This document shows, one piece after another, positions 58,320 to 61,766 of a stretch of DNA of 64,000 nucleotides (position 1 is the first letter of the stretch; every line of letters starts with the position of its first letter). The notes under the pieces are model-generated. The model was not told the origin of the DNA, ran no database searches, and saw only the letters and a list, made by a program, of their open reading frames with translations. The translations under genes were made by a program, and so were the position numbers. This DNA comes from Dictyostelium discoideum (Eukaryota), in the NCBI GenBank assembly GCA_000004695.1, contig CM000151.3, positions 8,384,001-8,448,000 on the forward strand, written 5' to 3'.

Positions 58320-58719
58320 ATGAAATTATTAAACTCACTAATTTTATTAGTTTTAACTTGTTTGGTATCGTCAATCAATACTCAATTCATTTCCATTCAA
58401 AAGTATGATTTTAGTGGAAATTGTAAAAATAGCTCAGATTCAGCAAGTAGTTTTGAAGCATCAAGCGAATCAGCAGCAATTTGTATGCAAAATGATTTAT
58501 TATCTGGTATAGTTACAAATGAGGGTGTTTGCTTAATATTTAATGAAGTTCCAACTACATTCATTATATCAACAAAAGGTGATTACATTGTTCGTTCAAT
58601 TTATGATATAAACGATAATAATTGTCAAGGTAATTATTTTATTTTTTACTTTTTTATTTTATTTCTATTATTGACTACTGATTTTGTAGGTGGCAGTGAG
58701 GCAAATACTAATAATAAAA

Positions 58720-58791
<72 letters not shown>

Positions 58792-59193
58792 TTTACCACA
58801 GGTGGTATTATTGAAAATAAAGCAATTGAAATTGATGAATGTTTTGTTGAGTGTGCTGATGATTACCATGGAAGTACATATTTATTTTCAACTGAAACAT
58901 CTTTAAATTACCCATCTAATACCTTCATGGAAATATCTTACAATGGTGAATGTGATGGACAATGGAAAACTAGTTTCAATTATCTTCAATATTACATTGT
59001 AAATAAATGTAATGTTGCACATGAAATTGAAACTCATACCTTTTCTGTAGGTTGTAATAGTACTTCTTCTTGGGTTAGTGAATACGCTGGTGAAGTTTGT
59101 ACCGTTGAACCAACTGTTACCACATCTTATCCAATAGTTGATAATTGTGGAGATTTAGATAATTCCAACTTTATTGATTATTGTAACATTTAA
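58320..59193 (+). CDS. secreted Cys-rich protein, tandem family member 1, 2 exons
   Basis: Signal peptide MKLLNSLILLVLTCLVSSINTQ. Exon 1 is 58320..58629 (..NDNNCQ G|GTAATT, phase 1); the intron 58630..58801 contains an (ATT)n microsatellite; exon 2 is 58802..59193 (GGIIENKAIEIDECFVECADDYHG ... CNSTSSWVSEYAGEVCTV ... DYCNI*). Confidence 0.75.
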
Positions 59194-59491
59194 ATTATTA
59201 AAGTCTTTTAAAAATAAAAATTGTTGGTTAATTATTTTTTTTTAATTTTTTTTTTTTTTTTATTATTATTAACCAAAAAAATATATAGTGTTCCAAATTT
59301 TTACATTCTTTATTTTTTTTTATTTTTTTTTTGGGGTTTAATTAAAAAAAAAATAACTCAAAATTTTAAGTGAAAATGTTAAAAAAAAAAAATATCTCTT
59401 TTTTTTAATTTTTTAGTTTTGTCAAAAAAAAAAAAAAACCATCAAAACATTAAAAAAGTTGATTTAAAAAAAAGAAAGAAATAATAAAAAA

Positions 59492-59928
59492 ATGAAATTA
59501 TTAAACTCACTAATTTTATTAGTTTTAACTTGTTTGGTATCGTCAATCAATACTCAATTCATTTCCATTCAAAAGTATGATTTTAGTGGAAATTGTAAAA
59601 ATAGTTCAGATTCAGCAAGTAGTTTTGAAGCATCAAGCGAATCAGCAGCAATTTGTATGCAAAATGATTTATTATCTGGTATAGTTACAAATGAGGGTGT
59701 TTGCTTAATATTTAATGAAATCCCAACTACATTCCTTATATCATCAAATGGTGATTACGTTGTTAGTACAATTTATGATAAAGACGATCTTAATTGTCAA
59801 GGTAATTATTTTATTTTTTTATTTTTTTAATATTTTATTCCTATAATTAATTGACTACTGATTTTGTTGGTGAAGTTGTGCAAATACTTATAGTATATAT
59901 TTTATATTTTTAAATTTATTAATAAATA

Positions 59929-59988
<60 letters not shown>

Positions 59989-60389
59989 TTACCACAGGTA
60001 ATATTATTGGAAATAGAGCAATTAAAATTGGTGAATGTTTTGTTGAGTGTGCTGATGATTACCACGGAAGTACATATTTATTTTCAACTGAAACATCTTT
60101 CAATTACCCATCTAATACCTACATTGAAATATCTTACAATGGCGAATGTGATGGACAATGGAAAACTGGTTTTAACTATCTTCAATATTACATTGTCAAT
60201 AAATGTAATGTTGCACATGAAATTGAAACTCATACCTTTTCTGTAGGTTGTAATAGTACTTCTTCTTGGGTTAGTGAATACGCTGGTGAAATTTGTACCG
60301 TTCGACCAAGTATTACTTATACTAACCAAATCGGTGATAATTGTGGTGGTTTTAATAGTGCCAACTTTATTGATTATTGTAACATTTAA
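59492..60389 (+). CDS. secreted Cys-rich protein, tandem family member 2, 2 exons
   Basis: Exon 1 is 59492..59801 and is 98% identical to member 1 exon 1. The intron 59802..59997 contains (ATT)n. Exon 2 is 59998..60389 (G NIIGNRAIKIGECFVECADDYHGSTYLF...CNSTSSWVSEYAGEICTVRPS...DYCNI*). The track has no ORF here because exon 2 lacks a start codon, but the frame is open across all 392 nt. Confidence 0.7.
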
Positions 60390-60440
60390 ATTATTAAAGT
60401 TTCAAAAATAAAATAAAATTATTGGTTTGTACTTTCTTTG

Positions 60441-60495
<55 letters not shown>

Positions 60496-60780
60496 CTGAA
60501 AATCCTATTCTACAACACAAAGCATGCTTTGCTTTGAATTAAAAAGTAATTGAATTTTATAATTATTTTTTTAAAAAAAAAATATATATAAATTTCTCGA
60601 ACATGTCATAAATAAATTCTAGAAAAATTAAATGATATTTTGAGATTTTTTAAATTTTTATAAAAACATTTAGATATTTTTTATAATGATATCACTTTAA
60701 AACAAATTTTCATTTTTTTTTAAAAAATGAATTGTAAAAGTCAATAAAATTTTTTTTTTTTTTTCTTCAACACATAAAAT

Positions 60781-60784
60781 AAAA

Positions 60785-60865
<81 letters not shown>

Positions 60866-60885
60866 AAATAAATAAATAAATAAAT
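60781..60885. repeat. (AAAT)n microsatellite upstream of Cys-rich family member 3
   Basis: About 24 units with one AATT variant; ends about 30 nt before ATG 60919. Confidence 0.9.
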
Positions 60886-60918
60886 ACATAAAGAAAAAAA
60901 GAAAAAAAAAAAAAAAAA

Positions 60919-61766
60919 ATGAAATTATTATATTCATTAATTTTATTAGTACTAACATGTTTGATTTCATTAACTCAAACTCAATACATCTCCATACAAA
61001 ATTATCAATTCAGTGGGAATTGTAATAGATTTATCAATGGTAGCAGTAGTGATTCAACAGAAACTTGTGTTCAAGATGATTTATTGTCTGGTCAAGTGAC
61101 AAGTGAGGGTTTTTGTTTGATTTTTAATGAAGATATAAGCACATTAACAATATCACCAAATGGTAATTCAATTATTCAATCAATTTATTCACCAACTGAT
61201 TATAATTGCCAAGGTAATTATTTTATTATATAATTTTTTTTTTTTTTTTTTTTTTTAATTTTTTTTGTGTTTTTTTTTCTATTTTAATTTTTTGTGTTCT
61301 ATTTTTAGTTTTGAATAATTATTTTTATTATTTTTTATTTATTTTTTTATTTAATTATATTATTATTATAGGTGGTATTATTAAAGAGAAAGAACATGAA
61401 ATTGGTGAATGTTTTTCTCATTGTGTTGATGAAAACCATGGAAAAGTATATTCATTATCTACACAGTCATCAATTAGTTTCCCATCGAATACTTTTGTTG
61501 AAGTGTTTTATTCTGGTGAATGCAATGGGGATTGGAAAAATAATTTCAATTATCTTGATTATTTTGTGATTAATAAATGTAATATTGCATATGCTTTTGA
61601 AAGTCTTACCTATACTTTCAATTGTAATAGTACTTCTTCCTGGATGAGTGAGTTCAATGATGAAAATTGCACCGTTAAACCAGCTGGTATTCAAGTTGAT
61701 CCTTTAGCAAATAGTTGTAGTAATGCATCCAATAATAAAAACCATTTAGATATTTGTAATGTTTAA
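60919..61766 (+). CDS. secreted Cys-rich protein, tandem family member 3 (more diverged), 2 exons
   Basis: Signal peptide MKLLYSLILLVLTCLISLTQTQ. Exon 1 is 60919..61213 (..PTDYNCQ G|GTAATT); intron 61214..61371; exon 2 is 61372..61766 (GGIIKEKEHEIGECFSHCVDENHG...CNSTSSWMSEFNDENCTV...DICNV*). Confidence 0.7.

Follow-up and report, generated by a model that had tools for sequence, protein, structure and literature searches.

The closest described relatives of the genes considered here belong to the dictyostelid protein family DUF3430 (Pfam PF11912), which was renamed "Bad" by Guilhen et al. 2021 (PMC7886984). The family comprises 160 proteins, 54 of them in Dictyostelium discoideum, and its hallmarks are a signal peptide, at least eight conserved cysteines and Y/FxxxxC motifs (PMC7886984). 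Over-expression of its member BadA raised, and depletion lowered, the activity with which cell extracts lysed Klebsiella pneumoniae at about pH 2, and intracellular killing was faster in cells over-expressing BadA (PMC7886984). We analyzed a stretch of 64,000 nucleotides (nt) of chromosome 2 of D. discoideum AX4 (contig CM000151.3, positions 8,384,001 to 8,448,000 of the forward strand), hereafter the window, in which three annotated members of this dictyostelid-specific family, cfaA (m1), cfaB (m2) and DDB_G0277753 (m3), stand in tandem and a fourth copy (m4) lies 53 kb upstream from them.

The four encoded proteins matched the PF11912 profile (CfaA_B_C, formerly DUF3430) end to end, from position 1 to position 203 or 205 of 206, with E values of 5e-23 to 3e-36; the individual scores (Table 1) compare with a curated cut-off of 28.6 bits. 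Full-length matches at this level exclude chance. The spliced m1 product was an exact match to "Counting factor-associated protein A" (Q54Z64 / XP_642489.1). The cfaB locus corresponds to m2, whose product of 233 amino acids (aa) was identical to KAM9946654.1, and the m3 protein was identical to Q86KS4 / XP_642491.1 (DDB_G0277753). The 272-aa protein of m4 found no exact match in a collection of 15 billion proteins, and the profile searches returned no AX4 counterpart for it. The gene may be unannotated, recorded as a pseudogene or differently modelled in the AX4 reference; its ortholog in D. cf. discoideum (P0018) was called as a PF11912 gene. A preliminary description of the region, made from the letters of the sequence, had not recognized the family, and had named assignment to a well-characterized one as a result that would tell against it. 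The profile search run here did return a family, and because of the PF11912 assignment that part of the description has to be given up, though the family is only lightly characterized. The genes thus belong to a family already known, with a Pfam entry and a dedicated paper.

An exhaustive profile search of 1.84 billion proteins yielded 25 representatives at E<=0.001, from which the breadth of the family was taken; an indexed protein search had given 11 to 14. The named relatives came without exception from Dictyostelium species or Heterostelium album, in line with the earlier guess of a lineage-specific family, and they included CfaC (P0026, 26% identical to CfaA) and BadO (DDB_G0276925, P0036, 25%). 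One further hit, the 1133-aa product of an ENA metagenome contig (P0035), was rejected as spurious: it gave 18 partial matches at profile positions 179-222 and is a translated tandem DNA repeat, the score of which was inflated by repetition. DDB_G0277757, numbered next to m3, was also considered as a member of the cluster and discarded, as it is the CBM49 stalk gene staD and was not found in the window.

Each of the four genes consists of two exons with a GTAAT donor and an AG acceptor, and each intron is in phase 1, splitting a Gly codon (G|GT) after NC(Q/E). The gene coordinates given in the preliminary description, with a tandem trio and a distant fourth copy, held for all four, as did its conserved intron and its exon 2 of 392-395 nt. 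Between m1 and m2, nucleotide identity was 95.8% in exon 1 and 91.1% in exon 2, where the proteins are 82% identical; the earlier estimate of near-identical first exons and about 85% in exon 2 was close enough. The greater divergence of m3 was also borne out (72-74% identity between m1 and m3). No additional copies of the PF11912 type were found in the window by tblastn.

The window genes resemble BadA (Q86LA4) and BadO in having a full-length PF11912 domain, a signal sequence, conserved cysteines and a distribution restricted to dictyostelids. BadO, although only about 25% identical, also lies in a tandem cluster and has its intron at or next to the same position. In the D. discoideum assembly GCA_054883475.1 (locus L009, 3001-6637) it was seen within a trio of PF11912 genes encoding 255, 278 and 256 aa; tandem clusters are typical of the family, and triplets occur in it more than once. 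CfaC (Q86HB8) is like CfaA in its PF11912 domain, its place in the same series of names, its phase-1 intron in the identical alignment column and its detection in a lysosome-rich extract. It differs in its low identity (26%), in its distance (about 1.4 Mb along the same contig of a related assembly) and in having no tandem partner within the 3-kb flanks examined. The phase-1 intron occupies the same column (174) of the alignment in CfaA, m3, the m4 type, CfaC and a D. purpureum member, and the BadO intron lies one column away, in phase 2; judged from this alignment, the position of the intron goes back to the ancestor of the family.

The m1 and m2 genes lie in a duplicated block of about 1.05 kb (Table 1) that holds about 65 nt upstream of the ATG, the gene and about 77-81 nt of 3' flank, which agrees with the earlier report of duplicated upstream regions; the start-to-start spacing of cfaA and cfaB is 1172 nt. 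The syntenic locus was compared between the AX4 window and six other assemblies. Three PF11912 copies were present in the AX4 window, in each of the D. discoideum assemblies L001 and L002 and in D. cf. discoideum L003, two in D. cf. discoideum L004 and in D. dimigraforme L005, and one, of the m3 type, in D. citrinum L006. The strain comparison that had been proposed thus revealed copy numbers of 3, 2 or 1 across related genomes, and therefore cfaA and cfaB are the product of a recent tandem duplication. A second m4-like gene was seen in D. cf. discoideum GCA_054859205.1 (P0019, 269 aa; locus L007, 12386-13651), about 1.5 kb downstream of the m4 ortholog, as an apparently chimeric model with a repeated half-domain. 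As P0019 has no counterpart in the window, copy number varies at the m4 locus too.

Differences between the cfaA and cfaB coding sequences were unevenly distributed: one was found in nt 1-228, 18 in nt 229-345, nine in nt 346-603 and 21 in nt 604-675. The clustering into hot and cold segments gave p = 2e-15 for segments picked post hoc from the data. Within nt 1-228 the paralogs differed at 1-3 sites within a strain, compared with 5-7 sites between AX4 and the L002 strain. This greater likeness within a strain indicates, at the level of sequence comparison, that the 5' part (about 228 nt) of cfaA and cfaB was homogenized by gene conversion; in L003 the paralogs differ at eight sites of the same segment and conversion is not evident. 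With a synonymous divergence (dS) of about 0.36, and with both the A and the B type kept between strains, nt 604-675 represent an old divergence that escaped homogenization. In nt 229-345 (aa 77-115) nonsynonymous divergence (dN) is 0.21 and dS 0.04, but the ratio above 1 is not significant (Fisher p = 0.12) and positive selection is not claimed for this patch. The whole-gene dN/dS between orthologs, 0.14-0.39, points to purifying selection and to the maintenance of both copies.

The comparison shows how the locus arose. An ancestral two-exon gene, already carrying the phase-1 intron, was first duplicated in tandem to give the cfaA/B-type and m3-type copies. The cfaA/B-type copy was duplicated again in the D. 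discoideum lineage as the block of about 1.05 kb. Gene conversion appears since then to have kept the first 228 nt or so near-identical, with the patches aa 77-115 and aa 202-225 remaining divergent.

The AX4 reference entry for CfaB (Q1ZXJ7 / XP_001134586.1) has 172 aa. When rebuilt on the window, it uses a GT donor at 59762 (junction 59761|59998) with the same acceptor as our model and ends at a stop at 60246. This could be due to a genuine truncation, in which case cfaB would be decaying, the 172-aa product would be real and the cluster would hold two functional genes instead of three. Only residues 1-91 of Q1ZXJ7 match the family profile, however, and in its last 81 aa exon 2 is read out of frame. 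Splicing from the GTAAT donor at 59802, which stands at the family-wide intron position, yields a 233-aa CfaB with the full domain and all conserved cysteines. The 233-aa form is called by the newer annotation (KAM9946654.1) and in three other strains, and cfaB orthologs show the low dN/dS given above. Decay of cfaB is therefore very improbable; judged from the reading frames, the reference model is probably mis-spliced and should encode 233 aa.

The mature proteins contain 12 Cys each, with 2-4 NxS/T sequons and 2-3 Y/F/WxxxxC motifs per protein. The only Kyte-Doolittle hydropathy window above 1.6 lay at residues 1-8 (+19), giving a signal-peptide-like N-terminus, and the C-termini are polar; no second hydrophobic or membrane segment was found in m1-m4 by this measure. 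The earlier picture of secreted, Cys-rich proteins lacking a transmembrane segment or a glycosylphosphatidylinositol tail is upheld. Ten Cys columns were invariant in an alignment of 26 diverse members, and the cysteines presumably form disulfides.

An AlphaFold2 model built from these 26 sequences was almost entirely beta-strand (16 strands; predicted local distance difference test score, pLDDT, 86.2; predicted template modelling score, pTM, 0.81), with disorder limited to a Ser-rich linker at residues 40-51; an earlier model from 12 close sequences (pLDDT 42) was discarded. A sequence-profile search of the PDB gave no match at E<=10. When the whole predicted model was searched with Foldseek against the PDB, nothing was found at E<=0.001 (best E 0.076, template modelling scores <=0.26), and a viral structure library also gave no match to it. 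No solved structural counterpart was thus found for the PF11912 domain as predicted.

Guilhen et al. speculated, from Cys/aromatic spacing and predicted beta-strands, that the domain is a duplicated Greek-key barrel of the MiAMP1 / beta-gamma-crystallin type that permeabilizes bacterial membranes (PMC7886984). MiAMP1 and its relatives are likewise small, disulfide-rich, all-beta, secreted and antimicrobial. The all-beta model fits this proposal, as does a weak hint that the half encoded by exon 1 resembles the one encoded by exon 2 (hhalign: 35% probability, P 4e-4). However, comparison of the family alignment, or of either half, with MiAMP1 (sequence verified as PDB 1C01) gave hhalign probabilities of 0.1-0.5%, and the fold comparison did not recover a Greek-key barrel for the predicted model. 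As neither profile similarity nor a PDB fold match was obtained for a confident predicted model, the analogy is not supported on the modelling evidence, and a barrel of this type is very doubtful.

CfaA was represented by 2, 1 and 0 spectra, and CfaC by 5, 3 and 0, in the anion-exchange fractions of a lysosome-rich acid extract (PMC7886984 Table S1). The CfaA protein therefore exists; growing cells make it, and it was extracted together with lysosomal proteins and with the Bad proteins. We infer from family membership and from this one proteomic detection that the proteins may enter the secretory/endolysosomal route and may act, like BadA, as accessory antibacterial effectors in acidic phagolysosomes, where other lysosomal factors would be needed for lysis. 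This role is put forward tentatively, as a real possibility that could well prove wrong. The preliminary description had suggested a signalling or adhesion role, for which no direct support was obtained; the only experimental data on the family speak for the lysis of bacteria inside acidic phagolysosomes.

The main rival to an antibacterial role is that the proteins are extracellular signalling components, associating with the secreted counting factor of about 450 kDa that sets aggregate size and serving cell-number sensing rather than killing. The NCBI and UniProt names of m1 and m2, "counting factor-associated protein A/B", after which the Pfam family was named, suggest this, and a signal peptide with no membrane anchor is compatible with a secreted protein. 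The name is the sole evidence for the link: no primary report behind it was found in the accessible literature, which yielded no data on CfaA, CfaB or CfaC, and the mentions found refer to CfaD (Q54TR1). CfaD has only its name and the secretory route in common with the window proteins; it is a 59-kDa protein of the EPDR + cathepsin-L-like type, a chalone acting with AprA, and it does not belong to PF11912, so its biology is not transferable to them. A single dedicated signalling role is also hard to reconcile with 54 paralogues in one genome, and CfaA was detected in an extract rich in lysosomal proteins. A counting-factor role is for these reasons unlikely. The supplements of Kin et al. 2018 contained none of the gene identifiers of the cluster.

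A role as lectins or adhesion molecules was also considered. Three D. purpureum homologues (P0023, P0027, P0028) bear the automatic UniRef label "SUEL-type lectin domain-containing protein", and secretion, abundant cysteines and N-glycosylation sequons would suit such a role. Pfam lectin families, Gal_Lectin included, were not matched by the 26 members at E<=0.01 nor by the four window proteins at E<=1; no lectin stood near the top of the fold searches, and the membrane anchor expected for cell adhesion is absent. This is the least probable of the roles considered, and we give it hardly any credence.

Taken as a whole, known PF11912 genes with the locus history given above and a putative antibacterial role are very likely the best explanation of the region. 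Several points weigh against it. Purified BadA alone did not lyse bacteria (PMC7886984). CfaA did not track the bacteriolytic peak and was absent after size exclusion (PMC7886984); neither CfaA nor CfaB nor m3 belonged to the proteins that were enriched together with the lytic peak. The name used in the databases implies that the proteins associate with the extracellular counting factor. As for the locus history, the case for gene conversion depends on few sites, and the excess of nonsynonymous change in aa 77-115 fell short of significance.

The (ATT)n runs reported in the first two introns were confirmed by Tandem Repeats Finder (TRF) and differ in length. Both the window and L001 have 22 and 20 units, whereas another D. 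discoideum strain has 44 in each of the two introns; the counts for D. cf. discoideum are 4 and 7, or 3, and that for D. dimigraforme is 0. In D. citrinum, 25 units were counted in the intron of the m3-type gene. Across strains and species the range is 0 to 44 units, and for the cfaB intron 7 to 44 among strains. The coding minisatellite of m4 was also found where reported, with a period of 18 nt (SQSSWG is six residues) in place of the 15 nt first given; the m4 ortholog P0018 is one unit shorter (266 compared with 272 aa). Both the (ATT)n and the SQSSWG repeats are ordinary slippage-prone repeats of an AT-rich genome and vary between strains.

The window has about 20% G+C and contains poly-A/T tracts, as is usual for dictyostelid DNA. 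A T50 run (60446-60495) lies downstream of cfaB, and an (AAAT)37 array (60777-60925) reaches the ATG of DDB_G0277753; in L001, a closely related assembly, the spacer between m2 and m3 is shorter by 17 nt. Both genes flanking the trio carry extreme homopolymer tracts. The upstream open reading frame (ORF; 55922-57827) contains a stretch of over 100 Asn residues, and in the ORF on the downstream side (61920-63848), of the SAC3/GANP family, (AAT)n at 62058-62173 encodes runs of poly-Asn and poly-Gln. The remaining neighbors are listed in Table 1.

Table 1. Genes, duplicated block, repeats and neighboring genes, in window positions (PF11912 scores given for the four family members)
Feature	Position	Strand	Product or method	Details
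m1 (cfaA)	exon 1 58320-58629 (310 nt); intron 58630-58801 (172 nt); exon 2 58802-59193 (392 nt)	+	233 aa	PF11912 119.6 bits, E 2.3e-34
m2 (cfaB)	exon 1 59492-59801 (310 nt); intron 59802-59997 (196 nt); exon 2 59998-60389 (392 nt)	+	233 aa	PF11912 111.2 bits, E 9.1e-32
m3 (DDB_G0277753)	exon 1 60919-61213 (295 nt); intron 61214-61371 (158 nt); exon 2 61372-61766 (395 nt)	+	229 aa	PF11912 125.6 bits, E 3.4e-36
m4	exon 1 5301-5727 (427 nt); intron 5728-5817 (90 nt); exon 2 5818-6209 (392 nt)	+	272 aa	PF11912 82.7 bits, E 4.8e-23
Tandem duplication	58255-59270, repeated at 59424-60470	+	blastn	89.1% identity over 1050 columns
(ATT)n microsatellite, cfaA intron	58720-58792	+	TRF	24.3 copies
(ATT)n microsatellite, cfaB intron	59929-59988	+	TRF	20 copies, 100% match
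Coding minisatellite, m4 exon 1	5406-5537	+	TRF	SQSS[WFI][GAD] units, period 18 nt, 7.3 copies, 91% match
DUF726 protein	46-1404	+	Pfam
Urocanase	1798-3591	-	Pfam	at least 2 exons
ComC-supersandwich/DUF7034 protein	9514-11307	+	Pfam	downstream of m4 (region 7252-11307)

For curation, the value of these results lies in CfaB Q1ZXJ7 (172 aa), which appears to be mis-spliced, and in the copy at 5301, for which the collection searched contained no AX4 match. For the fold and mechanism of the 54-member family, the published MiAMP1 analogy is left unsupported by a confident predicted structure. The locus itself offers a compact and clear case of tandem duplication, putative partial gene conversion and strain-variable microsatellites.

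A bolder proposal would join these strands: PF11912 may be a disulfide-stapled all-beta fold without a solved counterpart, and cfaA/cfaB a young duplicate in which conversion preserves the scaffold and the surface patches aa 77-115 and aa 202-225 diversify under selection by bacterial prey. We hold this to be a long shot; if true, the family would be a fast-evolving amoebal repertoire of antibacterial effectors with target-specific paralogues.

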